UHGV virus genome: UHGV-1367746
Source of the DNA: a virus
Length of the DNA stretch: 39,184 bases
Direction: 5' to 3' (one strand)
Positions 941-39,184 of the stretch are shown piece by piece. The first letter of the stretch is position 1. Each line of letters opens with the position of its first letter. The notes beneath the pieces were generated by a model that searched no databases, had not been told where the DNA came from, and was given only the letters and a program-made list of their open reading frames with translations. A program made the position numbers and the translations under genes.

Positions 941-2707
941 CTAGTGAAACGTAACGTAGGCCCCTAGTCCCAGCTCGTCGTCCGTATCGTGAGTTACTCG
1001 GACCCCATTGTCCCAGAACTCAGTGTGGATGGACTCGAAGCCTTTCCGTGGGTTCTCCATCTGTTCCTCCAGCCACTCCTCAGTGACTTCACGTTCGCCT
1101 TTGTTGGCATCCTTAGCCATAGACTCAACGAAGAACTGTACACCGATAGCCAGCGCATCAAGTCGGTCATCGTGTGCCAAGGCTCCACGTTCACGAGAGA
1201 TACGGGTCATCTGGTAGAAGAGAGAGTAGATAGGGTTACGAACACCATCCTTATCAGAGGCTGACTGGTAGTCTTGGACGATAGCAGCAGCGTTAACGAT
1301 AAGTCTGTGAGACCCCATGATAGGCTCCAGAACGTCACAGATGCGGAGTTCCTTCTGACCCTTACTCTTCACTTCAGTTACAGCCGCAGGATGGATACGG
1401 GCCGCTACAGGCTTGAATAACTCAAGGTACATACCATCACCGAAGTTACCCTCAATGACGTATTCGTTGACCTTCCACTTACGACCAATCTTAGCCAGAG
1501 CTTCCAGAGTAGAGTCTTCATAACCTCCACGCATACCACCAACTTCCATAGCGAAGATGTAGCCGTTGAGCTGGTATAGTACCGCATATCCAGTTTCATC
1601 CTTACCACGACCACTAGGGTCAATGACCAGAATCTTCTGGGTGTACGAGCTGAAGGCAGAACCTACAGTCTGATACGTGTGGTATGAGTCACCCATGAGT
1701 CCAACGTTAGGAACGTCCTCACGCTTGTTCTGAGGGTTAGGAAGCCATTGGTAGACCATTGGGCTAGACGCTGGGTCCAAGTCTGCTACGATAAGGTCAC
1801 GGAGCTTCAGAGGGTACTTCTCGGCATCACTCAGGTTAGGGTTAAGCATGAACTGTAGAGCGAAGCCAGCTTTACCATAAGACAGCTCACGTTCCTTCAG
1901 GTCCGTATCATCGAATCGTACTTCATCGGTAGGACGCCAGTAGAAGGACTCAGGGTCCTCTTCCAGCTCTGCCTGAAGCATCGGTGCCAGACGGTCGCCG
2001 TAAGACTGCCAGTCCTTCTTATCACGTGGATAACGAGCAGGCCAGATAGTAGTGGTGTATCCACGGCCTTCCAGCTCACGATACAAGGTCATCTCGTTCT
2101 GAGGAGTACCCAGATAGATGATTGTACCTCCCGGCTTCAGGATAGCGTCGAACTCTTTCACAAGCTCTGACAGACGGTCTCTGGCAGCCTGAGTCGCTGA
2201 GTTGTTCGGAACCTCCACGTCATCGGCAATCAGGATGTCAGCACGACTACCAGTCAACTGACCAGTGATACCAACAGACTTAACCGAAGGTGAGTGGTCT
2301 GGCTTGGCTGGCCCAACGTCGAAGCTAATAACCGCATCTCGCTGTCCCTGCTTAGGTTTGAGTTCCTGAAGCTGAGGCATGAGGTCGATGATTCGCTTGA
2401 TGAAGATGGAGTTCGCATCGGCTCGTTCCTTTGAGGCCGACACAATCATGAACTTCAAGTCTGGGTTGTTCCATAACTTCCAGACCACGAAACCACAGGT
2501 CAGAAACGACTTGCCGATACCACGGAAAGCCTGAAGGATGAAGCGGCGATTATCCCCAGCAGCCAGCTTCTTACACATATCTATCTGGCAGCGTGTTGGA
2601 ACCGGAAGGCTAAGAGCTTTCCAGAGAACGAAGATGAAGAATACGAAGTCGTCCCTCATCCTTCGGGTCATTTCTGCCTGTCTTTCAACAGGTGTTTTCT
2701 TAGACAT
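941..2707 (-). CDS. Terminase large subunit (T7 gp19-like, DNA maturase B)
   Basis: 588 aa; extended identity to remembered T7 gp19 ([96 protein letters not shown]). Confidence 0.95.
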
Positions 2708-3137
2708 AGAGTCCCTCCAGCATTAGGTCCCGGACAGAGATAGCCTCCTCTAAAGTAGGACGTGTTGTTCGCATATAGACATTCCCGCGTTTAACCTGAA
2801 TCCTATAACCATTCTGGTGACGGGTAACGCACTTCACTCCCGTCTTAGAGTCATAATGGCTACCCGTATTCCAAGTGTTCTCAGCGGCAGTAACGAGCCG
2901 TAAGTTACTTAAGGTATTATTGCTGGGGTTCCTGTCGATGTGATCTATTTGCATACCATGTGGTATAGGACCATTGGTTAGTTCCCATATCACGCGATGT
3001 GCCCGCTTACTGCCTAGACTTCGTGTCTGTACTATCCAATATCCCATCCGACTTAATGTCCCCACAGGCTTTCCAGTCCTAACGGAGACCAGACCGGATG
3101 GACTCGCCTGGTCCACTTTGTAGTAATCACTTAACAC
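2700..3137 (-). CDS. HNH homing endonuclease (free-standing)
   Basis: 145 aa; HNH motif region [41 protein letters not shown]; inserted between spanin and large terminase genes and overlapping both ends by a few nt. Confidence 0.85.
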
Positions 3138-3564
3138 CTTGGAGCCTCCTTATTGTGTCCTGAAGCGCCTTCTCCTTAAGGTCTGCCTCCTGAGTTATTC
3201 GGATAAGACTTTTAGAAGTTTCTGGGTGTAGTTCGACTCTACCATTAGGGAAGCATCGACTGACATCTGACTCGGTGAGACCTGAGGTGTTGACCTTGAC
3301 GCGCAGCCGCTTATTGTCAGACTTAAGGTCAGCAATAATCCTATCAGTGCTGCCTTCCAACGAGGACATTTCGTCCTGAAACCGTTTGGACACTTTGTTG
3401 ACTTCAGCTTGGACAGCAAGCCTTGTATCTTCCGATGCCTTAAGATTCGAGGTGTATTCTGCATTGACCTTAGCCTCCCACTTATTGTTAGCGGTGTGGT
3501 AGCCACCAGCAAACATCACTGCTGCAAGTAACCACGGAGCCGCTCTCTTTAAAAATTCGAGCAT
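3127..3564 (-). CDS. i-spanin (Rz-like, T7 gp18.5 homolog)
   Basis: 145 aa; N-terminal TM segment; similarity to T7 gp18.5 (MLEFL..., LEGSTDRII.DL.SDNKRLRV.V.T, ALQDTIR.LQ). Confidence 0.85.
   Translation of the reverse strand: MLEFLKRAAPWLLAAVMFAGGYHTANNKWEAKVNAEYTSNLKASEDTRLAVQAEVNKVSKRFQDEMSSLEGSTDRIIADLKSDNKRLRVKVNTSGLTESDVSRCFPNGRVELHPETSKSLIRITQEADLKEKALQDTIRRLQGVK
3195..3419 (-). CDS. o-spanin (Rz1-like lipoprotein) embedded in +1 frame of the Rz gene; start uncertain
   Basis: Embedded frame encodes hydrophobic signal plus lipobox LTISGC followed by short mature peptide; no ATG or GTG near the signal peptide, TTG at 3419 is one candidate (ORF track uses ATG at 3512). Confidence 0.4.
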   Translation of the reverse strand: MLSKLKSTKCPNGFRTKCPRWKAALIGLLLTLSLTISGCASRSTPQVSPSQMSVDASLMVESNYTQKLLKVLSE

Positions 3565-4162: not shown

Positions 4163-6163
4163 TTACCAGTAGTACCAATCACCTTTCCTACTTCTAATTA
4201 GAACAGAGCAATCGGCAACGGGTACTGTAGATACCCCACCAATCCTTATCTCATATAATTTACTGGGTAGTCTTTTCTTAGTTAGAGATGCTTTAAAATC
4301 TGTACCGGTTACAGTGATATATTCTGTCCCCTCCTCACTAGCTATCTGTAGGTCCAGACCACTGGGACTTGCTGGCAACTTAACATAAAGCTGCTGTTCT
4401 GCTGTACTACCGGCGAAATGACCGATAACGGTAGTTGTCCACTCACTCAAAGTCAGCCCTGAGCGCACAAAATCTACATTAAGGGGTTCCTTAATAAGTG
4501 CAGCAGGTGCGTTGTAATTATGCCCGTTAAGTACATAGTAGTTGCTGCTACCAACCTCTACTGTGTCTGCTGTGCAATAGGAGTGGAAGGTTCTTGAATT
4601 ATCAAAACGATAAAGACTTCTGATTAGCACACGCTCTTGATTACTTCTGGTTAAGATACCACAACCAGCAGATAGGTGAAGTGTAGAGATGGTAAGTGTA
4701 TGACTCTCGCTGTTAGCCTTAGACGACAATAATGATACCTTCGGCTCACCCACCTGAGTGAAGTCTTTACTGTTGCCCTCGCAGTACATAACCCCAATGT
4801 CCCACGCAGCAGGGTCCATTGTTACCACACCAGCACCAGATGTATTCTCAGAGCAAATCACACCAACACTAGTAGATAAACCACGACCTAAGATAATACC
4901 AGCACCTATCGTATATTTACTCGCATCATCTGTGATTGGGTCATAACCTAGTCCAGTAGACTTATCTGTACCCCATGCACTAATGTGAGGGAAGTGTGTA
5001 GCATTTACATAGGTATCCCCTTGCTCACCTTCCGTTGAATAACCTAATGCCACGCCCCTTGCACAGTTGTTTGCATGGAGAGTACCCATTTGAAAATACC
5101 AGCAAGCAAACATTACAATGCCATATCTATTAGCATTATATGCATAGATACTACCCATCTCGGATTCTGCACACATTAGTCGTGCGTAAAAACCATACGA
5201 TGCAATGTCTGCACAGTCTATGTTAAGACTGCCAATCAAACGTAGCCCTCGTACTTGGTTCTCAGTATTAGCTACATCAACGGTTTTGGTTCCAATAGGA
5301 AATTTACTAACACGAACAACAGATTTTAATGCAGGCCATGTTGGACCAATTGCTTTAATTGTTGCCCCATTTAGATTCCCACGTAGGTAAGAGGGGATAA
5401 CAACCTCATCTGTTACGTGGTAGGTAGCCTTGCCATCAAGGTTTAATGTGCCTGTAGCTATGGCCAATTTTATAGCAGGTAGACAGTCAAAGCTGGGGTC
5501 GTTCGGGATTGCCCCAAAGTTCTCAGGTGAGTGCTCATCAAGCCCATTCAGCTTACCTACGTTAGTCCAATTGGAATCAGGGGTTGAACCTGCAGGCACT
5601 GTTTTTGGGAGAGCACCATCCCAGCGGTAATAATAACCATCCTCTTCCCTTAGCAGGACCTCGTTCCATAGTGTAACGGTGAAGCCTTTCTCGAAGGAGC
5701 TACGGGTAATATAGCCAATTAGACCAGCCTCCCTGATACTCGAAACTATTCGTCGTGCTTCGTCCTCGCTATCCTTAGCGCTGCCAGCAGAGTTACCAGC
5801 AGCATCGGCATATTCCTTCGCTAAGTCAACAGTTTGGTCTCGCCCTTCTTCTGCAATATGGATAGCCTGAAGCTCCGAATTGGTCAGGTCACTAGCTGTC
5901 AACACTGAGCCATTCCTGAAGTCTACCACTAAGTCAGTTCCAGTCTGACGGTGAATACGAACGACGTCGAAACCTGATTGGTCAGCCAACATCTCAATCA
6001 TCGTTGGATTAAGGAATCGGTAATCTCGACCAACTTCTAGTACACGGTTCAGGGCAGGGTTAGAGCTATTCACCAGCGTAACAACAACAAACGTTCTGGC
6101 TAGGTAGTCGAACTCAATCCTGTACCGAGTGTTTCCTGAAGGGAATTGTGTAATCGTGGACAT
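4163..6163 (-). CDS. Tail fiber / tailspike (gp17): T7-like N-terminal adaptor domain with divergent C-terminal receptor-binding domain
   Basis: 666 aa; N-terminal about 150 aa matches T7 gp17 (F.YLAR.FVVVTL, DYRF, D.T.GS.L.A.DL); remainder lacks T7 shaft repeats and looks like a beta-helix tailspike (inference). Confidence 0.9.
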
Positions 6164-10120: not shown

Positions 10121-12403
10121 TTACTCCTTACCGATTAGTACGTTTGCGATACCCTCCAGTGAGACGTCATTGTACATCCCACCGCGCTTCTCGATGTCGG
10201 CCTCTCGGTCAGCTCGACGTTTATCACCAGCAGCTTTAGTCCCGACGATACGCGCTCGCTTGTTAGCGTCACGTTCTGCCTGAGCGTATGCGGCATCCTG
10301 TGCCTTCTGCTGTTGTTCGCGGTAGAGTTTACCTACAAGTTCTTTATCGTAGCGAATACGAATAGTACCTGTAGCGTCTTGGAGGAAGATAGAGCCGTTC
10401 TGTTCAACAACGGACAACTGAGAGTTCACTACCCAAGGGTTGGCCTTAATGAGCTGCTTACGGGCGGTGTCGATAATGTCTCGACCTACCTGCCACGACT
10501 CAGGGTTATCCCCGACCATAAGCTGGTGCTTGGACACCATGCCGATGGACTTACCGTCAGAGCCTTCAGACTGGAACGTTACGGTATTTTCATTCAGCCA
10601 TCGTTGAGTCTGCTGAGTTGCAGCGTCAGCGTTACCTGTACGATAGTACCATGAGTCCCAGACCTTACGAGCACTTGAGTCCAGAGACGTAGGAAGACGC
10701 GAAAGGTCCTTATTCCGAGAGTCGTTCTTCAACTCCTGCCACGCCTTGTCTGACTCCATGCGCATCTCACGGCTTTGACTTGCAGCTTGCTTATCAGCTT
10801 CAATCATCGTCTGAGGGTCCAGACCCATCTTGTCCATCTGGTCGAACGTAGAGAACAACTGAGCTTGGTCAGGATACAGAGCAGCGAAACTTGAAGGGTC
10901 CTGAGTGTAGGCACGACGAAGAGACTCGAAGCGCTTCATCTTGTCTGGGTCGTACTGTCCACGGATGACCGCAGCTTGCCACTCACCAGCAGCGTCCTGA
11001 GTAAGCGTCTGGAAGGCATTACGGAACGGACCGTTGTTAGTGTCAGCTCTTAACAATGCCACCTTCTGAGCGTCCTTAGCAGCCTCAGGGATGTCCATCT
11101 GGTCAATCTGCTGTAGCTTGGCAGACGCATAGTTGTTCATGTCTGAACGCTTGAACTCTCCTGTAGCTTCAGAGACCGGAAGGTCCTCATAGTTGGTGGA
11201 CACGTTGTCCCCAGCCAGACGTCGCTGATAAACTTGGTCGATGACCAGTTGCTTGTTCTGGGTCTGGATTAACTTAGTGTTCTCCTTTGCCTGTTCAGCA
11301 GACTTACGCTTGACCGCTTCCAGTAAGCTGGCTTCGGCATTAATAAGCATCTGACGCTGAGGAGTGAGTTCTTCACCCGGCTGAAGCAGGTTGTTCTGCT
11401 CCTTGAGTTTCTGAATCTGGGCAAGACCAATGGTTGGGTCATCCTGAAGAATCGCAGACTGAACGCCTAACGCTAAGTCTTCCTGATACTTAGCCACCAG
11501 CTTGTACTCAGTTCCTTGTGCCTCAACAATAGCAGCGTTGAAGACATCAGGTCCTACAATCTCTTCGACTGTAGCGTCCACACCGTTAAGGGTTATTCGC
11601 TCGCCTCGTACTTGCTGTAGGAAGTTTGAGCCTCCTGACTTCTGGATTGCGTCACGGACCGTCTGGGTGATGACCTCTCGTGCTCTCTGGTCCGAAGGTA
11701 TAGCAGCAGTCGTCAGTCCATCCCGAAGGTAGGCCATGAAGGTCTTTCCAGACTCAGGCGAACGCATCAGGTCCCCATCGTTAAGGAACGAGTTCAACTC
11801 AATACGAGTGTTCAACATTGCTGTCTCTTCAGACTGCTTGCTGAAATACTTATTGAAGGACCCGTAGATAGCGATGTTTCGGTCCGTGATGTTATCGTTG
11901 AATCCACGCTGGAAGAACTCGTCGGTAGGGTTAATACCTGCCTCTTCAGCATAGGACTTAGCGGCATCCTGAAGTCGCTGGTGGCGATATTCTTCCATTT
12001 CCTGACGTGTGCGGAACTCACCGTTCTGAATCTTAACGTTAATCTCGTCGTCTACAGCAAAGGCAGCATTACGACCAGTCTTGACTCGAAGTGCTTCCAT
12101 AGCGTAAGGGTCATCCTGATACAGCAATGTGCCATTCTGGATAGCCTCACGTCTCTGCTGAGGTGTCAACTTACGGATAATCTCGTTAGACCGCTCGTCA
12201 GCTCTGGTCTTCTCATCGTCCTTGAACTGCTTGTACAATCCTGTCCCAGACTCAACGAAGTTAGTTAACGCACGAGCCAGACCGGAGTCACCAGTTGGAG
12301 CCTGAACGCTGGCTGCTTGATAGTTGACGGCGATAGTTTTACCCGGCGCTCTGCCACGACCCATAGTCCGATTAGCCAGAGCTGATTCAATATTACTAGC
12401 CAT
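10121..12403 (-). CDS. Internal virion protein C (gp15-like)
   Basis: 760 aa; similarity to T7 gp15 (ERSNEIIRKLTP.QRREA..NGTLLYQDDPYAMEALRVKTGRNAA, EEMEEYRH.RLQ); synteny. Confidence 0.85.
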   Translation of the reverse strand: MASNIESALANRTMGRGRAPGKTIAVNYQAASVQAPTGDSGLARALTNFVESGTGLYKQFKDDEKTRADERSNEIIRKLTPQQRREAIQNGTLLYQDDPYAMEALRVKTGRNAAFAVDDEINVKIQNGEFRTRQEMEEYRHQRLQDAAKSYAEEAGINPTDEFFQRGFNDNITDRNIAIYGSFNKYFSKQSEETAMLNTRIELNSFLNDGDLMRSPESGKTFMAYLRDGLTTAAIPSDQRAREVITQTVRDAIQKSGGSNFLQQVRGERITLNGVDATVEEIVGPDVFNAAIVEAQGTEYKLVAKYQEDLALGVQSAILQDDPTIGLAQIQKLKEQNNLLQPGEELTPQRQMLINAEASLLEAVKRKSAEQAKENTKLIQTQNKQLVIDQVYQRRLAGDNVSTNYEDLPVSEATGEFKRSDMNNYASAKLQQIDQMDIPEAAKDAQKVALLRADTNNGPFRNAFQTLTQDAAGEWQAAVIRGQYDPDKMKRFESLRRAYTQDPSSFAALYPDQAQLFSTFDQMDKMGLDPQTMIEADKQAASQSREMRMESDKAWQELKNDSRNKDLSRLPTSLDSSARKVWDSWYYRTGNADAATQQTQRWLNENTVTFQSEGSDGKSIGMVSKHQLMVGDNPESWQVGRDIIDTARKQLIKANPWVVNSQLSVVEQNGSIFLQDATGTIRIRYDKELVGKLYREQQQKAQDAAYAQAERDANKRARIVGTKAAGDKRRADREADIEKRGGMYNDVSLEGIANVLIGKE

Positions 12404-16696: not shown

Positions 16697-17128
16697 CTAA
16701 TCTCCTTTAAGGTAGCGTATAGCGTTTGCAATATGCTCTGGATTCTCACTTAGGAGTCCTATGGCACAGTTGCACCTCTGACAAAGCACGCCTCGTATTT
16801 CACCAGTGGAGTGACTGTGGTCTACAGCCAGTGTTCTACCAGATGTCTCTACTGTTCGCGAGCAAATCTCACAGGCCCAACCACGAGACTCCATAAGGGA
16901 GAACCACTCGTCATATGTCATACCGAACGAGCTTTTAAGTTGGTAGCCTTTAAGTCTTTCCGCTGAGTATCGTGATTTGTTGGGAGCTTCCTCTCGTATG
17001 GCAGCCTGCCTTGAGTTCTCGCACTCTCGGCATCTGCTTCTGTATTTCTGTGTGCCCTTACATGTCCTGCCATTTGGCGTGAAAGACCCCAAGTCCTTCT
17101 CCGTGTGGCATCCTATACATACCTTCAT
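16697..17128 (-). CDS. HNH homing endonuclease (free-standing), immediately downstream of Tphi-like terminator
   Basis: HNH motif DHSHSTGEIRGVLCQRCNCAIG plus N-terminal Cys cluster; start placed at ATG 17128 with GGAGG 4 nt upstream because the longer ORF (to 17182) would run through the terminator hairpin. Confidence 0.8.
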   Translation of the reverse strand: MKVCIGCHTEKDLGSFTPNGRTCKGTQKYRSRCRECENSRQAAIREEAPNKSRYSAERLKGYQLKSSFGMTYDEWFSLMESRGWACEICSRTVETSGRTLAVDHSHSTGEIRGVLCQRCNCAIGLLSENPEHIANAIRYLKGD

Positions 17129-17138
17129 TAATCCTCCG

Positions 17139-17176
17139 AAAAAAAACCCCTCAAGCACCCGAAGGCACCCAAGGGG
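17139..17176 (-). terminator. Tphi-like terminator for phage RNAP (also intrinsic-terminator-like)
   Basis: Minus RNA CCCCUUGGGUGCC-UUCG-GGUGCUUGAGGGG followed by U8; closely resembles T7 Tphi (AACCCCTTGGGGCCTCTAAACGGGTCTTGAGGGGTTTTTTG) and sits right after the 10B stop. Confidence 0.8.
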
Positions 17177-17182
17177 TTTCAA

Positions 17183-23794: not shown

Positions 23795-24193
23795 TTACTC
23801 CTGTTTAAATTGTCCGTACTTCTTGTCAGACGTTAAGTTTATACACATAGAGGTCTTGACTCTAACCTCTTCAGTGAACGGTATAAGCCAGAGGAAATCC
23901 TGATAAACAACCGCTAGTAGGTCGATGTCTCCAGGACTGTAAGTCGGCTTACCACATCCTCCCAGCCTTACCTGTATGCTATTACAGTTCTTCAGCTTCG
24001 TTCCGGTCTTGACCTGAACCCTCGTAAGGGTCCCGTCTATATCGACCACCAAGTCTGCCTTTGACTGCGTGAATGCTGGGAGGAACACTTGATGCCCATT
24101 GGCTGTCAGCCTAAAGCTTGCATATAGCTCACTAGCAGCACCAGTGAAGTGCTGGGACTTTCCGTCAATGGCATTCTTTCCACGTTGGTCCAA
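23795..24193 (-). CDS. Hypothetical protein, possible PD-(D/E)xK-type nuclease (gene 5.3 position); predicted TTG start
   Basis: ORF continues from DNAP 3' overlap; GGAGGG RBS 5 nt upstream of TTG at 24193; motif D-x-D...VQVK suggestive of a restriction-endonuclease-like fold (weak inference); ORF-track ATG start at 24307 would overlap DNAP by 143 nt. Confidence 0.45.
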   Translation of the reverse strand: MDQRGKNAIDGKSQHFTGAASELYASFRLTANGHQVFLPAFTQSKADLVVDIDGTLTRVQVKTGTKLKNCNSIQVRLGGCGKPTYSPGDIDLLAVVYQDFLWLIPFTEEVRVKTSMCINLTSDKKYGQFKQE

Positions 24194-26336
24194 TCTTACC
24201 CTCCGTATCAAGCTCACACTTGAAGTTATAAAAACGTCCGACCTCACGCATTGCTTCTTGTGCAATACGGACGACTTCTTCGGCAATCTCCTGAGTACGA
24301 CACGCAATCTGCAATTCGTCGTGAATCCAAGCCATTAGCGCAAAGTCCCCATCCCAACCGTTACCATAACCAGCCTCCTCAAGTTTCTTCTCCGTCAGAA
24401 CCATCCAGTGCTTACAGACTACCGCACCATCACCTTGAAGTAATGCGTTCAGTGCTGAGTGCGGCGACCGGATGTGGATACGGCGACCATCAAGTCCACG
24501 CAACCAACGGCGTTTCCACTTGACGATATTCTCACCGTCCACCCACTTAGAGTCTGAGATTAACGTATTACTCACAGCTTCCCTGAGGTCTTTGATGGCT
24601 GGTGTACCCTCAATGAATTTCTTCATGAGAGCTGAACCTTCCTTCTTCCCACCGCCTACTATCAGTCCAATCTTAGCGGCCCCTGCACCATACAGGAACG
24701 CATAGATGAACGTCTTAGCGTTGTCACGGAAAGCATCATGGTCGTGGCTCGACTTATCGCGTGGGACGTTAGGTGCTAACCCAGCGTTTACTGCGTTGGC
24801 CCAGTGGATGTCACCTTCGACCACAGTCTTCGCATATGCACCACCATCAAACGGAGCCGCTCTGTTCCCAAGACAACGAAGCTCAAGACCTGAAGCATCC
24901 ACACCCACTTGAATCCAAGGGTCTGGCTTACCATCCGTCTTGTTCCAAGCTGCACCGAAAGCACCACGGCAAATCTCACCATACGGAGCACCGTTAGCAG
25001 GGACCTGAGCCATGTTTGGTGAACTGTGAGTCGCACGTCCGGTTACTGCCCCGCATGGGTTGATTGAACCGTGCATACGTCCGTCTGGACCTACAAGTTT
25101 CAACCATGCGTTCTTACCTTCAGCCGCCTGACCTATGCGCTTCTGGACTACCAGATACTCACGGACCAGCTCTACGCAAGCCTGAGCCTCTGCGTCTGGC
25201 AACTTAACGTGTTCTAACGTCTCGTCATCGACTACAGGTTTCCCTGTGTCAGTGAAGTCCACAGGCTCCCAGCCCCGCTCCATCAAGACTTTCGCTAAGT
25301 GGTCTCCGCTTCCCGGATTAAACTCAACGTAGGTGATAGGTGTGAACGGTGCTCCCTCCATCGTGTCTCGCGTATCGCGTTCACAAGGTTCAAGACCTAA
25401 GCGTTGAGCTTTGTTCTTCGGCTTCTTAAAGATGCCACCTACCTTAGGGTACACGACTCGCGGATACTTCGGAAGGTCCTTGCCTGTCCGTGGGTGCTTG
25501 AAGAACTCCTTGCCTCCCTTTGGTGCGTACCAGCTACCGAAAGTCGAACGCAGCTTGTCCAGCAACTCTGCACGTTTGACGGTGAGTTCACGATATAAGC
25601 CTTCGACCATCTCGATGTTCATCGGATATCCGTTACGTTCCATCTTCGCACAGGTCCACGCAGCATCATGTTCCAGACGCAACGCATAAATCTGGTCGAA
25701 AGCGAACTGTTCAGACTGGAAGTAATACTTGTCAGTCAGGAACTTCTTGAACAAAGCCAGTGTTACCACAACGTCTTGAACGTTATAGTCCAGCATCTCC
25801 TGAGACGGGAACAACCATTCGTCCCCAGCCTTATATTTGATACCTTCAGCCTTGCATTTGGCAACGTAATCATGCTTGTACTCACCCTTCATCTCACCAA
25901 GACGATAACCCCAAGCCTCAAGAGACTGGCGTCCCATCATCTGAGGCGGCAGACGACCAGCTTTCACCGCTCCCATGTCTGAGAACTTGATGTTTGGATA
26001 CATCAAGCGTCCCAGCACCAATGTATCAATCATCTTGTGTTTCGGGAAGTTAAAACGTTTCCCAAAGTACAGACGCTTCAGCTTGTCGATAGCCGGTACG
26101 TCATAGTTGATACCGTTGTGAAATACCAGCATACCATCAGGCGATGCGGCAATCTCTTCCACTTTATGAACATACTCTTTGAAGCCACCGACGATACCGA
26201 CCATCGGAGCTACCCCATACTTAAGGGTCTCATTCGACTCGGCGTTAATCAGGACCCCACAGTGAAACTGGGAGACTGTATCAAGGAGACCGTTGGTCTC
26301 GATGTCAGAACCCCAGATACTCTTAAGGTCAAACAT
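24165..26336 (-). CDS. DNA polymerase (gp5-like, family A) with thioredoxin-binding loop
   Basis: Strong similarity to T7 gp5 throughout (DIE.N.LL, YNVQDVVVT, SWY.PKGG.E.F.HPRTGK.LPKYPR, KVGGIFKKPKNKAQR, GAVTGRATH, PWVQ.G.DASGLELRCL, DNAKTFIY.FLYGAG, VHDE.Q, LDTEGK.GP.W..CH); start set at ATG 26336 (GGAGG RBS) rather than the ORF-track start 26372. Confidence 0.95.
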   Translation of the reverse strand: MFDLKSIWGSDIETNGLLDTVSQFHCGVLINAESNETLKYGVAPMVGIVGGFKEYVHKVEEIAASPDGMLVFHNGINYDVPAIDKLKRLYFGKRFNFPKHKMIDTLVLGRLMYPNIKFSDMGAVKAGRLPPQMMGRQSLEAWGYRLGEMKGEYKHDYVAKCKAEGIKYKAGDEWLFPSQEMLDYNVQDVVVTLALFKKFLTDKYYFQSEQFAFDQIYALRLEHDAAWTCAKMERNGYPMNIEMVEGLYRELTVKRAELLDKLRSTFGSWYAPKGGKEFFKHPRTGKDLPKYPRVVYPKVGGIFKKPKNKAQRLGLEPCERDTRDTMEGAPFTPITYVEFNPGSGDHLAKVLMERGWEPVDFTDTGKPVVDDETLEHVKLPDAEAQACVELVREYLVVQKRIGQAAEGKNAWLKLVGPDGRMHGSINPCGAVTGRATHSSPNMAQVPANGAPYGEICRGAFGAAWNKTDGKPDPWIQVGVDASGLELRCLGNRAAPFDGGAYAKTVVEGDIHWANAVNAGLAPNVPRDKSSHDHDAFRDNAKTFIYAFLYGAGAAKIGLIVGGGKKEGSALMKKFIEGTPAIKDLREAVSNTLISDSKWVDGENIVKWKRRWLRGLDGRRIHIRSPHSALNALLQGDGAVVCKHWMVLTEKKLEEAGYGNGWDGDFALMAWIHDELQIACRTQEIAEEVVRIAQEAMREVGRFYNFKCELDTEGKIGPTWKECH

Positions 26337-26617: not shown

Positions 26618-28602
<1,985 letters not shown>

Positions 28603-28626
28603 TGAGTTGTTCTCCTTTAGAGTTTA

Positions 28627-29085
28627 TTAACCACGGTCGGAAGTGACCAGTTCGTTGGTAGATAGCCAGCGTTGCAAGTCAAAACTTGGACACGCCTTCG
28701 GTGCCACGTCATGGTGTGCTTTGATTTCTGCCTGAGGATACAGGACCTTCAGGTCAGCCAGCTTGTTGCGCAGGGAGTTCATCTGGGCTGGAGTGAAGTT
28801 AGCTTCAAACTGACCCTTAGCGTCTATTCCACCTACAAGGCAGACGCCTACAGACCGTGAGTTCCAGTCCTTAACATGTGACCCTACGACATTGACCGGG
28901 CGGCCCTCTTCCACAGTACCGTCACGTTTGATGATAAAGTGGTAGCCTACGTCCAGCCATCCTTGCTGCTTGTGCCACATACGGATGGTCTCTACCCCGA
29001 TGTCCATCTCTGGCTTGGTAGCCGAACAGTGAACGAAGATAGCGTCAGTACGGGACCGTGGGTTGAACTGTACCTTACTTACCAT
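28627..29085 (-). CDS. T7 lysozyme-like N-acetylmuramoyl-L-alanine amidase (gp3.5-like)
   Basis: 152 aa; very high similarity to T7 gp3.5 (VQF..R..TDAIFVHCSATKP, WH..QGWLDVGYHFIIKRDGTVE.GR, GVCLVGGID.KG.F.ANFTPAQM.SLR, AHH.VAPKACPSFDL.RW...NELVTSDRG). Confidence 0.95.
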   Translation of the reverse strand: MVSKVQFNPRSRTDAIFVHCSATKPEMDIGVETIRMWHKQQGWLDVGYHFIIKRDGTVEEGRPVNVVGSHVKDWNSRSVGVCLVGGIDAKGQFEANFTPAQMNSLRNKLADLKVLYPQAEIKAHHDVAPKACPSFDLQRWLSTNELVTSDRG

Positions 29086-29533
29086 TGTACACCACCAATT
29101 CTACGACCACCAGATTCAGGTGCTGGGTGAAGCGTTGTGCGTCCGTGGTGTGCATCTGGAGACGCTTATGGTTGAAGACGTGTGAGTTGCTAATCTTCAC
29201 GTAAACTTCTTCAGGCTTTCCGTGGACGATGAACGTCTGACCTACACCAATCTTGTCGATTGTCAGGACTTCACGCTTCACAGTCACAGGCGGTACGCTA
29301 GAAGCTGGCAGGACCTGAGGCTGTTCAACAACTTCTACACTGTAGGTCTCGTGACCATTCCAGCTGGTAGTCTCCCCAATGTAATCCTCAGGATGCCACC
29401 CCTTCTCCACAATTACGCTATGGTCTTCTCGCTTTTCAAAAACAGCATCAGTGAATTGGGGGTTATTCATCAGTGTGTTCTTTGAGAATCTGTAACGTGT
29501 TCCAACTTCAAGGTCTTTACAGGTAATCATCAC
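29075..29533 (-). CDS. Hypothetical protein (ORFan inserted between endonuclease I and lysozyme genes)
   Basis: 152 aa ORF filling the gene 3 / gene 3.5 junction, which is not occupied in T7; no recognised motif. Confidence 0.6.
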   Translation of the reverse strand: MMITCKDLEVGTRYRFSKNTLMNNPQFTDAVFEKREDHSVIVEKGWHPEDYIGETTSWNGHETYSVEVVEQPQVLPASSVPPVTVKREVLTIDKIGVGQTFIVHGKPEEVYVKISNSHVFNHKRLQMHTTDAQRFTQHLNLVVVELVVYNGK

Positions 29534-29982
29534 TTAACTCCTTTCTTCTTAGGGATGAGGATGCCGGAAGGAAGACGTACAGTCACCTCCCTCAGCCACT
29601 CAACTGGGATAAACTTGTCGGCAAACTTAAAGCCGTTCTTTTCGCACCATGCGCCATACGTGGTCGGAGACCCTTTGTATAACTTGGAGCGGGAACTTGA
29701 GAACACGAACCGTATGTCCAGCTCAGGGTGTTGTTCTCGTACCAGAAGGTGCTTCTTACGGTCATCACTATCGAAGATACCTTTGGTCTCCACGATGATA
29801 CCGTTAGGAAGGATAAAGTCTGGTGTGTACTTGTGGTCGGAAGCCGGAATCACATAGTTGATATAATGGCTTTCGTACTCCGCTTTGACGCCGTTCTGTT
29901 CCAGCCACTGCTGGTTCTTGGCTTCAAGTCCAGAGCGGTAGGCACCCACAGAGTGCCCCCGTTTTGCAGACCATTGGGCCAT
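29530..29982 (-). CDS. Endonuclease I (Holliday junction resolvase, gp3-like)
   Basis: 150 aa; strong similarity to T7 gp3 (GAFRSGLE, YVIPAS.H.YTPDF.LPNGI.VETKG...SDDRKKHLL.REQHPELDIR.VFSSSR.KLYKGSPT.YG..CEK.G.KFADK.IP.EW). Confidence 0.95.
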   Translation of the reverse strand: MAQWSAKRGHSVGAYRSGLEAKNQQWLEQNGVKAEYESHYINYVIPASDHKYTPDFILPNGIIVETKGIFDSDDRKKHLLVREQHPELDIRFVFSSSRSKLYKGSPTTYGAWCEKNGFKFADKFIPVEWLREVTVRLPSGILIPKKKGVK

Positions 29983-30680
29983 TAGAAGTCGTAATCGCCA
30001 CCAGAGTTAGAGTCGTCACCACCTTCGGAACCATCGTCACCGAAGTCATCAGACCCGAAGTCACCATCGGTTGACGCTTTGTAGCCAGTACCGAGGTCTT
30101 CATCATCACCCCAGCCACCATCGCCACCAGCACCATCACCTTTCCACTCCTTCAGTTCTACCAGAAGGCATGACTCAAGCTGGAGCTTAACGCTTGCACC
30201 AGTCGCAGCGTTCCACTTGAACGGCAGGACTTTAAACTTGACCTTCAGTTTGGAGCCAGCGCCAATATTCGGGACGTCACGGATTAACTTAGCATCGGTG
30301 TCGTAGAACCGTAATACTATAGGCTCTGACTTACCATCCTTCAGGTAAGACGCAAAGCATTTAAACTTCAGGGTAACAGTACCGTCACCATTCTCAATCC
30401 ACGGCATGTCGCCTTCTCGTGGTTCAATAGGCTTCTTGCCACGCTGAACCTGAGGTGGGTTCTTCTCGTGGTCTGCGAGTGCTTTCGCATACGCATCGTC
30501 GTGAATCTTCTGTAAGACATCAATCATCTTACGGACCTTCGGGTTGCTCAGGTCGAACGTCAGGTTAACCTTATGCTCACCACGCTCATTAAACTTGGTG
30601 TCTGCTTTGTTCAGCCATGCGTAAGGCTCAACGATACCAGCTACCGGAGTGGTGAAAGTCTTCAGTTGCTCTTTAGCCAT
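29982..30680 (-). CDS. Single-stranded DNA-binding protein (gp2.5-like)
   Basis: 232 aa; similarity to T7 gp2.5 (EPYA, NPP.V.RGKKP, EGDMP, NGDGT.T.KFKC.AS, GSKLKVK, VGASVKLQLES..LVEL) with acidic C-terminal tail ending in F. Confidence 0.95.
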   Translation of the reverse strand: MAKEQLKTFTTPVAGIVEPYAWLNKADTKFNERGEHKVNLTFDLSNPKVRKMIDVLQKIHDDAYAKALADHEKNPPQVQRGKKPIEPREGDMPWIENGDGTVTLKFKCFASYLKDGKSEPIVLRFYDTDAKLIRDVPNIGAGSKLKVKFKVLPFKWNAATGASVKLQLESCLLVELKEWKGDGAGGDGGWGDDEDLGTGYKASTDGDFGSDDFGDDGSEGGDDSNSGGDYDF

Positions 30681-30719
30681 TGGTGTAAATCTCCTAATTT
30701 AAAGTTACGAACTGGACGT

Positions 30720-30742
30720 CTGTCCTACAGTGATAGTTTAGG
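30720..30742 (-). promoter_or_regulatory. Phage RNAP promoter (phi2.5-like), +1 at 30725; single mismatch at -3
   Basis: Minus-strand CCTAAACTATCACTGTAGGACAG upstream of SSB gene. Confidence 0.6.
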
Positions 30743-30896
30743 CCTCAGGACGAATCCGTCCGACCACAAACCCAGCGTCCTCATACTCTTGGGACTTCAA
30801 GGTAGCCTCTTCGAGAGACTTTGCGTACACCGGAACCTCGAAGGACTGAACGCGACCCTCAAGCTCCACGATGTATTTCTTCTCAACCTCAGTCAT
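30738..30896 (-). CDS. Inhibitor of host RNA polymerase (gp2-like)
   Basis: Similarity to T7 gp2 (SFEVP.YA..L.EA, AGF.V.R.RP); start placed at ATG 30896 with AAGGAG RBS (52 aa); ORF track extends to a GTG at 30974. Confidence 0.75.
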
Positions 30897-30974: not shown

Positions 30975-31415
30975 TCACTCGGAATCATAGCATTTACCCT
31001 TATGCAGGTCGAACAGCTCCTGATAGAAGGCCGCTTTGTTCAGGTCCTTCTCCATAGTAGCCAGCTCGGACTTCTTGCCAGCTCGTAGTCGATACTTCAG
31101 GACGTTACCCATGCAGAAACCACGGAACTCGCTGACAGTCATGGACCGGGCGATAATCTCAATGGACTCTACGCCGTCAAAGACCTGATAGTGGGATGGC
31201 TTGCGTACAGCGTCGTCACGGACTTCTGGTTTGTCCTGAACAGTATTGGTGATAATTAGTGCGGCTTTACCGTGTTTAACTGGCTCAATAAGCCCAGGCC
31301 ATTTCACCTCTACTGAGTCCCCTGAGTTACATACGCTAAGAACCTTACCATCATAGCGGCCAATAAATTGACTATGCGTCCCAGCGTAGCGAACAACATC
31401 CCCGACCTTAATCAT
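30975..31415 (-). CDS. Nucleotide kinase gp1.7-like
   Basis: 146 aa; C-terminal half closely matches T7 gp1.7 (KPSHY..FD..E.IE.IARSMTV..F.G.C.GN.LKYRLRAGKKSELA..EKDL.KA.FY.ELF..HK.KCY). Confidence 0.8.
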   Translation of the reverse strand: MIKVGDVVRYAGTHSQFIGRYDGKVLSVCNSGDSVEVKWPGLIEPVKHGKAALIITNTVQDKPEVRDDAVRKPSHYQVFDGVESIEIIARSMTVSEFRGFCMGNVLKYRLRAGKKSELATMEKDLNKAAFYQELFDLHKGKCYDSE

Positions 31416-38943: not shown

Positions 38944-39080
38944 AGGTAATTTGAAATAATATTGAGTAAGCTATCGTCGGCCCCATGGTGTAAGAGGATA
39001 TAGTCTTTGACTAACATGTCTTTGACCTTAAGTCTATAGCTGTGTGTCGATTAACTGTAGGCCTTTGACTGTAGGCGTTG

Positions 39081-39184
39081 GTGTCTTATGGTTGTGACTT
39101 ATGGTTGTGACTTATGGTTGTGACTTATGGTTGTGACTTATGGTTGTGACTTATGGTTGTGACTTATGGTTGTGACTTATGGTT
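39081..39184. repeat. Tandem array of 13-mer gtgacttatggtt (7 perfect copies plus 1 variant gtgtcttatggtt) at window end (terminal repeat region)
   Basis: Direct reading 39081-39184; same unit as positions 1-52, so both genome ends carry the array. Confidence 0.9.

Follow-up and report, generated by a model that had tools for sequence, protein, structure and literature searches.

A conserved C-terminal domain and an exchangeable N-terminal module in gene 3.2 of a K1F-like phage

In phage T7 the genes for endonuclease I (gene 3) and lysozyme (gene 3.5) abut, at T7 position 10706. What, then, is the open reading frame (ORF) that separates their counterparts in UHGV virus genome UHGV-1367746, and what might it do? 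The whole stretch of DNA analyzed, referred to below as the window, comprises 39,184 nt and is a T7-like genome of the K1F group (Kayfunavirus, Studiervirinae) with genes read on the minus strand. A reading made from the sequence alone had placed a 152-residue ORF at 29075-29533 between the endonuclease I and lysozyme genes, had pointed to the adjacency of genes 3 and 3.5 in T7, and had called the intervening class II gene an ORFan with no recognizable similarity. The ORF, its place and the T7 arrangement are all borne out, and the gene is an extra one relative to T7 because T7 genes 3 and 3.5 abut. The ORFan label does not survive: there are matches in 221 phage records and 254 related proteins, a name (gp3.2) in phages K1F and EcoDS1, and distant Providencia-type homologues in the same slot. 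There is very little room for doubt that 29075-29530 on the minus strand is gene 3.2 of the K1F-like phages and a true class II gene, kept by purifying selection, transcribed with genes 2.5, 3, 3.5 and 3.7 and positioned for translational coupling to both neighbors. Among relatives, one conserved C-terminal domain follows any of several unrelated N-terminal modules, or none.

Identity and conservation of gene 3.2

The gene and its ribosome-binding site are located as follows.

29075-29530, minus strand: gp3.2 coding sequence, 151 amino acids (aa), with ATG start at 29530-29528 and TAA stop at 29077-29075
29538-29544, minus strand: Shine-Dalgarno sequence AAAGGAG, read from the sequence, inside the end of gene 3 and 7 nt before the gp3.2 ATG

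The version produced by the ORF lister, 29075-29533 on the minus strand, has 152 aa and a GTG start. The ATG at 29530-29528 is the second codon of that listed ORF and is more likely the true start than the GTG at 29533, because GGAG lies 7 nt upstream of it and the same start is annotated in relatives.

Sequence similarity, the C-terminal motif described below and genomic position all place the product in the gp3.2 family. A tblastn search with the protein finds matches in the 221 phage records mentioned above, and the 254 relatives come from a large protein database. Over its full length the protein is 97-98.7% identical to hypothetical proteins of phages Vec13, SEA1f and 216Ecol046PP (the highest value being that of 216Ecol046PP), and residues 68-151 are 94-96% identical to the K1F and EcoDS1 copies, which carry the annotation gp3.2. 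Two PHROG families match, phrog_16385 (E-value 2.3e-51) and phrog_15211 (E-value 4.8e-40), both listed as 'unknown function'. The gp3.2 proteins of K1F, EcoDS1 and Cronobacter phage Dev2 (PHROG 16385 for the long form, 15211 for the short) share with the window the slot between genes 3 and 3.5, an 11-nt overlap with gene 3.5 and the invariant motif; the C-terminal domain of the window protein is ~78-80% identical to the 74-aa short forms. At the DNA level, a 2.3-kb stretch around gp3.2 is 90-96% identical to sequence in 224 deposited phage records, almost all of them Kayfunavirus; for the right-hand 24 kb (window positions 15000-39184), the best matches reach ~90% coverage at 93-94% identity.

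Three lines of evidence support selection for the protein. First, the frame is intact in 22 of 22 IMG/VR loci recovered with the C-terminal domain, including that of CR44b with a variant of the motif. Second, it is intact in all 14 loci with a Kayfunavirus-type endonuclease I; the gene is near-universal in Kayfunavirus. Third, the ratio of nonsynonymous to synonymous substitution rates (dN/dS) over the last 70 codons, the C-terminal half, is ~0.13 with dS up to 1.4 (pairwise Nei-Gojobori, 120 pairs), compared with 0.11 in the neighboring amidase gene. The presence of the gene across relatives, which the sequence-only reading had proposed as a check, was thus confirmed, with gp3.2 intact in all loci inspected.

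Outside the genus the distribution is restricted. The 80 best endonuclease I loci in IMG/VR were surveyed for the content of the slot. Genes 3 and 3.5 are adjacent, as in T7, in 56; gp3.2 is present in 14, all with a Kayfunavirus-type endonuclease I; and the remaining 10 hold other inserts, either HNH endonucleases or 74-91-aa proteins (for example in Dickeya phages). A 145-aa HNH ORF lies between endonuclease I and amidase in four IMG/VR loci. Profile searching with HMMER, run exhaustively over 1.84 billion cluster representatives, matched 14 clusters only, all holding the gp3.2 C-terminal domain or, in one 50-aa fragment, the linker and the start of that domain; the family is narrow. Its most distant members are in Providencia-type Studiervirinae, where the C-terminal domain is 36-46% identical and is preceded by N-terminal modules of their own. 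These homologues directly follow Phage_endo_I with a 4-nt overlap, even when other ORFs precede the lysin gene. In Providencia phage PSTCR2 (locus L004, 2246-3278), two hypothetical ORFs of 117 and 79 aa lie between the gp3.2 homologue and endolysin, and another distant homologue directly follows Phage_endo_I at 2200-2598 of locus L037.

Domain anatomy and exchange of the N-terminal module

The window protein divides into two domains and a linker, and the second domain carries a block of invariant residues.

29321-29530, minus strand: N-terminal module 'type A', residues 1-70; acidic (isoelectric point, pI, 4.8), predicted SH3-like beta-barrel, hypervariable and exchangeable
29273-29320, minus strand: proline-rich linker, residues 71-86, PQVLPASSVPPVTVKR; common to all long forms and marking the 3' edge of the variable block
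29078-29272, minus strand: constant C-terminal domain, residues 87-151; mildly basic and His-rich, predicted SH3-like barrel
29129-29191, minus strand: invariant polar motif S114-N-S-H-x-F-N120 ... Q125-M-H-T-T129 ... R133-F134, from the invariant columns of alignments A2 and A3

In the homologue alignment, Kayfunavirus proteins show almost no variation from residue ~76 on, a region that starts with the linker ...PQVLPASSVPPVTVKRE.... An extended motif, G..F...Y..(I/M)SNSHxFN....QMHTT...RF, spans residues 97-134 and is kept in the Providencia-type homologues; its columns are invariant in A2 and A3, save that G97, F100 and M126 vary slightly in A3. The polar part of this motif (SNSHxFN..QMHTT..RF) is the presumed binding site. 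The C-terminal domain has a pI of 8.4, or 9.7 in the short forms.

Structure prediction points to two SH3-like small beta-barrels joined by the proline-rich linker. AlphaFold2 (AF2) run on an alignment of same-type proteins models residues 1-73 at a predicted local distance difference test score (pLDDT) of ~90 and leaves the remainder below 50, with the linker low and the C-terminal domain unmodeled. A rerun on a more diverse, but shallow (19-row), alignment of the C-terminal domain gives a mean pLDDT of 82.8, with the core above 90. Fold matches of both barrels are generic and include the nucleic-acid binders L2, KOW, Sm and Tudor. The likeness to SH3-like domains (FeoA, the DtxR/IdeR C-terminal SH3-like domain, KapB, the KOW domains of EF-P and Spt5, ribosomal L2, Tudor and Sm) is a resemblance at the level of fold, because sequence membership in the curated barrel families was tested and not found: Pfam FeoA, KOW, SH3, Tudor and LSM are matched neither by the window protein nor by any of the 29 homologues scanned. 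An origin of the two barrels by internal duplication was rejected (hhalign probability ≤2%). Internal initiation of a C-terminal-only product from the long form is likewise unsupported, as GTG codons at V82 and V84 have no preceding Shine-Dalgarno sequence.

At least five classes of N-terminal module, each comprising the first 60-90 residues, can be distinguished in the homologue alignment. By hhalign, there is no similarity between classes beyond the shared linker tail and none to the C-terminal domain; only modules A and A2 are related (99% probability). The window carries type A, K1F and EcoDS1 carry the unrelated type C, and Dev2, GW1 and SH phages have no N-terminal module. Among the 221 deposited phage records, 27 are of type A, 56 of type C, 10 of type D and two of type B, and most of the remaining ~100-plus encode a 74-aa gp3.2 that is the C-terminal domain alone (roughly half of the phages). 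Every listed type match has its module directly against the end of gene 3. Two proteins carry tandem modules before the same C-terminal domain, B-like plus A-like in P0105 and C-like plus A-like in P0121; P0105 occupies the usual gp3.2 slot, on a 39.8-kb contig. The type A module was not found outside gp3.2 in the HMMER search of the 1.84 billion representatives.

The boundaries of the exchanged block are sharp. Across genes 2.5 and 3 the DNA is ≥90% identical to that of relatives; between the gp3.2 start codon and ~29300, a point within the linker, the figure is 30-55%, and beyond it 90-100%. Endonuclease I remains 96-100% conserved where the adjacent module is completely replaced. Within type A, synonymous sites are saturated, whereas the attached C-terminal domains differ by dS of 0.3-0.9, so the modules are best explained as old lineages moved by recombination rather than as fast-evolving copies. 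Where dS can be estimated, omega for type A is 0.09-0.25, with one pair at 0.49; by this and the C-terminal values, both halves of gp3.2 are under purifying selection.

Compared with six complete Kayfunavirus genomes, the N-terminal block is one of ~12 islands in the window with mean tile identity below 65%, against a genome median of 91%. Several of the others correspond to early genes, to the distal tailspike or to free-standing ORFs of the HNH, Endo VII or PD-(D/E)XK kind; unlike the nuclease-ORF and tailspike islands, that in gp3.2 is an in-frame domain replacement. Three nuclease islands, all on the minus strand, probably encode homing endonucleases and are missing from most of the six relatives:

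2700-3137, minus strand: HNH_3 (E-value 6.7e-21)
16697-17182, minus strand: Endonuclease_7 with His-Me finger (E-value 2.1e-19)
23795-24307, minus strand: PD-(D/E)XK nuclease, PDDEXK_5 (E-value 4.9e-10)

HNH genes also occur at or next to the gp3.2 match in phages PH1061 and TM1, and between genes 2.5 and 3 in Penshu1 (locus L036, 9022-9462). Insertions so close by could favor gene conversion and mosaicism in this region. In the tailspike or fiber gene, the distal two-thirds (4201-5550, minus strand, within the ORF at 4163-6163) shows no detectable nucleotide similarity to any of the six related genomes, Vec13 included; the receptor-binding module of the window phage is therefore a different one. 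Head type in gp3.2 is not linked to tailspike type, as the Vec13 head is 95% identical and its tailspike is different. A second variable N-terminal module on a conserved C-terminal domain is found in the same class II region, in a gp1.7-like gene (30975-31415, minus strand) with DUF3310 at residues 70-132 (E-value 2e-21) and an extra ~69-aa N-terminal module (MIKVGDVVRY...); the DNA of part of this module, 31201-31350, is present in only one of the six compared genomes (ST31).

Base composition was considered as a sign of foreign origin of the N-terminal module, and the signal is weak. The G+C content of the type A module in the window is 0.438, against 0.50 in its flanks (z = -1.7; 7.5% of tiles are as low), and that of its relatives is 0.44-0.47 against ~0.50-0.54.

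Other small proteins occupy the slot in Dickeya phages Katbat, Dagda, Luksen and Mysterion.

~2946-3221 in each of IMG/VR loci L071, L072, L084 and L112: unrelated slot proteins of other Studiervirinae, 74-91 aa

These share a W-x-G-H-E motif with type A modules and lack the SNSHxFN..QMHTT motif. The 85-aa Luksen protein A0A385IGQ2 gives a weak Foldseek match to the model of the gp3.2 C-terminal domain (E-value 0.023, TM-score ~0.6); it is assumed to be the occupant of the Luksen slot, since tblastn finds a match of the same length there. Homology of the Dickeya proteins to gp3.2 was not significant by hhalign (≤23% against A modules, 4.5% against the C-terminal domain). Acquisition of small barrel proteins may be a general property of the slot between genes 3 and 3.5.

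Neighboring genes and the transcription unit

The genes on either side overlap gp3.2, and copies of a promoter repeat flank the group.

29530-29982, minus strand: gene 3, endonuclease I, the upstream neighbor (Pfam Phage_endo_I, E-value 1.7e-81)
28627-29085, minus strand: gene 3.5, amidase/lysozyme, the downstream neighbor (Pfam Amidase_2, E-value 2.4e-16)
29075-29085, minus strand: 11 nt shared by the 3' end of gp3.2 and the start of gene 3.5, ATGGTAAGTAA; the arrangement does not vary among the Kayfunavirus loci examined
30724-30745, minus strand: phage RNA polymerase promoter copy upstream of gene 2.5, opening the transcription unit that contains gp3.2
28373-28394, minus strand: next phage RNA polymerase promoter copy, upstream of gene 4
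828, 6214, 13491, 18464, 19470, 22291, 28373, 30724, 31700, 33456 and 36776, minus strand: positions of all promoter copies

The window holds 11 copies of this 22-nt repeat (family D2), the reverse complement of CCTATAGTGATAGTTTAG. The reverse complement of the repeat reads ..AAACTATCACTATAGG; the family is the promoter set of the phage RNA polymerase, with all 11 copies oriented for minus-strand transcription. Between the copies at 30724-30745 and 28373-28394 no promoter or terminator consensus was found, and a scan of 28300-30800 for sigma-70 promoters and intrinsic terminators was negative. Genes 2.5-3-3.2-3.5-3.7 are therefore taken as one unit, with promoters at its flanks only.

The sequence-only reading had proposed translational coupling within a class II operon through ATGA-type overlaps on both sides. 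The overlap types were misread. Upstream, the TGA stop of gene 3 and the gp3.2 ATG share one base, 29530 (GTGATG), and a 4-nt GTGA overlap arises only if the GTG start is used; downstream, the overlap is the 11-nt one listed above. The proposal itself holds up as plausible: coupled expression of gp3.2 with its neighbors may be expected because of the tight overlaps on both sides and the single transcription unit.

Elsewhere in the window, an Rfam scan of the whole stretch gave no match, and a 13-nt tandem unit, GTGACTTATGGTT, is arrayed at both ends (1-65 and 39068-39184); these arrays presumably belong to the direct repeats that terminate the linear genome.

Possible function of gp3.2

The remote homology search and structure prediction suggested by the sequence-only reading yielded the gp3.2/PHROG family and two predicted barrels; they led to no family of known function. 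The window protein has no match in Pfam (even at E-values up to 10), NCBIfam or PADLOC, whose library models defense rather than anti-defense proteins and returned 0 matches, and a PDB profile search with alignment A1 also gave 0. Pfam scans of the 29 homologues returned sub-threshold noise (Imm11, NAC, DUF4851, Paramyxo_PNT). Imm11 (PF07791) was treated as a chance match: the best E-value among five members was 0.037, and the two examined in detail scored 11-12 bits over 27-28 residues against a Pfam gathering threshold of 22.1 bits. No nuclease catalytic motif or Pfam nuclease was found in gp3.2 by a scan that readily detects the homing-endonuclease ORFs of the window. In the literature searched, gp3.2 of phages appears only as an annotation-table entry for Citrobacter phages (PMC4925675); a search found no functional study, and recent work on Kayfunavirus does not mention it (PMC11990801).

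An accessory host-interaction factor is the most attractive candidate reading. T7 encodes several small class II proteins for host takeover or anti-defense, namely gp2, gp1.2, gp5.9, gp4.5, gp5.5 and gp5.7. By analogy with these, gp3.2 is small, non-enzymatic, middle-expressed and dispensable-looking, and would act by binding. However, it resembles none of them in sequence or in any specific structural feature, this position is empty in T7, and the combination of constant and exchangeable domains is not a feature of those proteins.

Tentatively, then, gp3.2 is viewed as a binding adaptor for host takeover or counter-defense, composed of a constant docking barrel and a swappable recognition head. 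Action by binding, probably stoichiometric, is proposed because there is no catalytic signature and the fold typically mediates binding. The constant C-terminal barrel would dock, through its invariant polar patch, on a target conserved across Enterobacterales hosts or phages; since synteny is conserved, the first candidate partners would be endonuclease I, co-translated with it, or the machinery of replication and recombination. The exchangeable N-terminal head would recognize a variable, strain-specific host factor and so provide a second, lineage-specific specificity. A modular adaptor of this kind, dispensable in permissive hosts, would be expected to show cassettes exchanged in frame, tandem heads that add to one another and a narrow taxonomic range, as gp3.2 does. 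A bolder version, in which the barrel docks on endonuclease I, the replisome or a core host protein and interchangeable, sometimes tandem, heads neutralize or recruit strain-variable factors, is unlikely.

Several observations weigh against the adaptor. Neither a homologue of known function nor expression data were found for gp3.2, and the model of the supposed docking domain rests on the shallow 19-row alignment. Roughly half of the phages lack any N-terminal module, so the head is not central to the core function, and module types are spread over phages of E. coli, Klebsiella, Enterobacter and Salmonella with no obvious host partitioning. Mosaicism near homing-endonuclease insertion sites could be neutral, and the mildly basic, His-rich C-terminal domain would fit nucleic-acid or metal binding equally well as protein docking.

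These last properties lead to a different proposal, that gp3.2 is an accessory factor of DNA metabolism with no role in defense evasion. The constant barrel would bind nucleic acid, in the manner of KOW, Tudor, Sm or L2, or endonuclease I itself, and would tune junction resolution, host-DNA breakdown or packaging, with the N-terminal modules as tolerated decorations. The place directly after Phage_endo_I is strictly kept, with overlapping stop and start, even in the distant homologues; the C-terminal domain is mildly basic (pI 8.4-9.7) and His-rich and suffices alone in about half of the phages; and the matches to SH3-like barrels include nucleic-acid binders. Yet T7, T3-like phages and most other Studiervirinae have no gp3.2, as the 56 T7-like loci of the slot survey illustrate. 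A head that is wholly replaced beside an endonuclease I conserved at 96-100% cannot co-evolve with that enzyme. There is little net charge, and sequence searches match no known nucleic-acid-binding family. A role confined to DNA metabolism is somewhat doubtful.

Largely neutral mosaic filler is a still less probable explanation. The C-terminal domain would be a dispensable conserved hypothetical protein and the N-terminal modules unrelated small morons fused in frame at a gene boundary prone to recombination; homologous recombination, acting at the linker and where gene 3 ends and possibly aided by homing endonucleases, would shuffle them without adaptive target recognition. HNH genes at or next to the junction in PH1061, TM1 and Penshu1, the other small proteins in the same slot of Dickeya phages, the somewhat low G+C content of type A (0.44 against 0.50 in the window) and the lack of host partitioning all fit such shuffling. 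It does not account well for purifying selection on both halves, for the reading frame, linker and 11-nt overlap kept in every variant, tandem-head forms included, or for a C-terminal motif that is invariant down to 36% identity. Moreover, T7-like genomes are compact and rarely retain useless sequence.

A mobile or selfish element, such as an insertion of the homing-endonuclease type, is highly improbable as the source of the extra DNA. Homing endonucleases do enter this junction in other Studiervirinae (the 145-aa HNH ORF of four IMG/VR loci), and several other islands of the window are HNH, Endonuclease VII or PD-(D/E)XK ORFs. However, gp3.2 is fixed across the genus rather than sporadic, both of its domains are small barrels, and it has no match in Pfam, NCBIfam or the PDB; the absence of a nuclease signature effectively rules out that identity. 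A chance ORF, favored solely by the absence of a named family, is ruled out by the conservation statistics (a frame intact in all relatives and dN/dS of ~0.13 with dS up to 1.4), and the correctly spaced Shine-Dalgarno sequence, the confident AF2 domains and plus-strand antisense ORFs that are short and not conserved as such leave it a negligible likelihood.

The ORF itself is ordinary: the window contributes a further example of a gene that already has hundreds of database entries, labeled either 'hypothetical protein' or gp3.2. The modular description, a near-invariant C-terminal barrel behind a sharply bounded cassette replaced by at least five unrelated domains, may be new but is descriptive. 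In-frame domain swapping within an otherwise ~91-94% conserved T7-like genome is typical of genes that engage variable host factors. If the polymorphic adaptor were true, gp3.2 would be an intracellular analogue of the exchangeable receptor-binding domains of tail fibers and would represent a new class of modular phage accessory protein. Kayfunaviruses (K1F, LM33_P1, CLB_P1 and others) are in use for phage therapy and engineering, and K1F can be edited by CRISPR selection (PMC6277420). For these reasons gp3.2 is a cheap and well-defined genetic target, the study of which could explain strain-level differences in productive infection.

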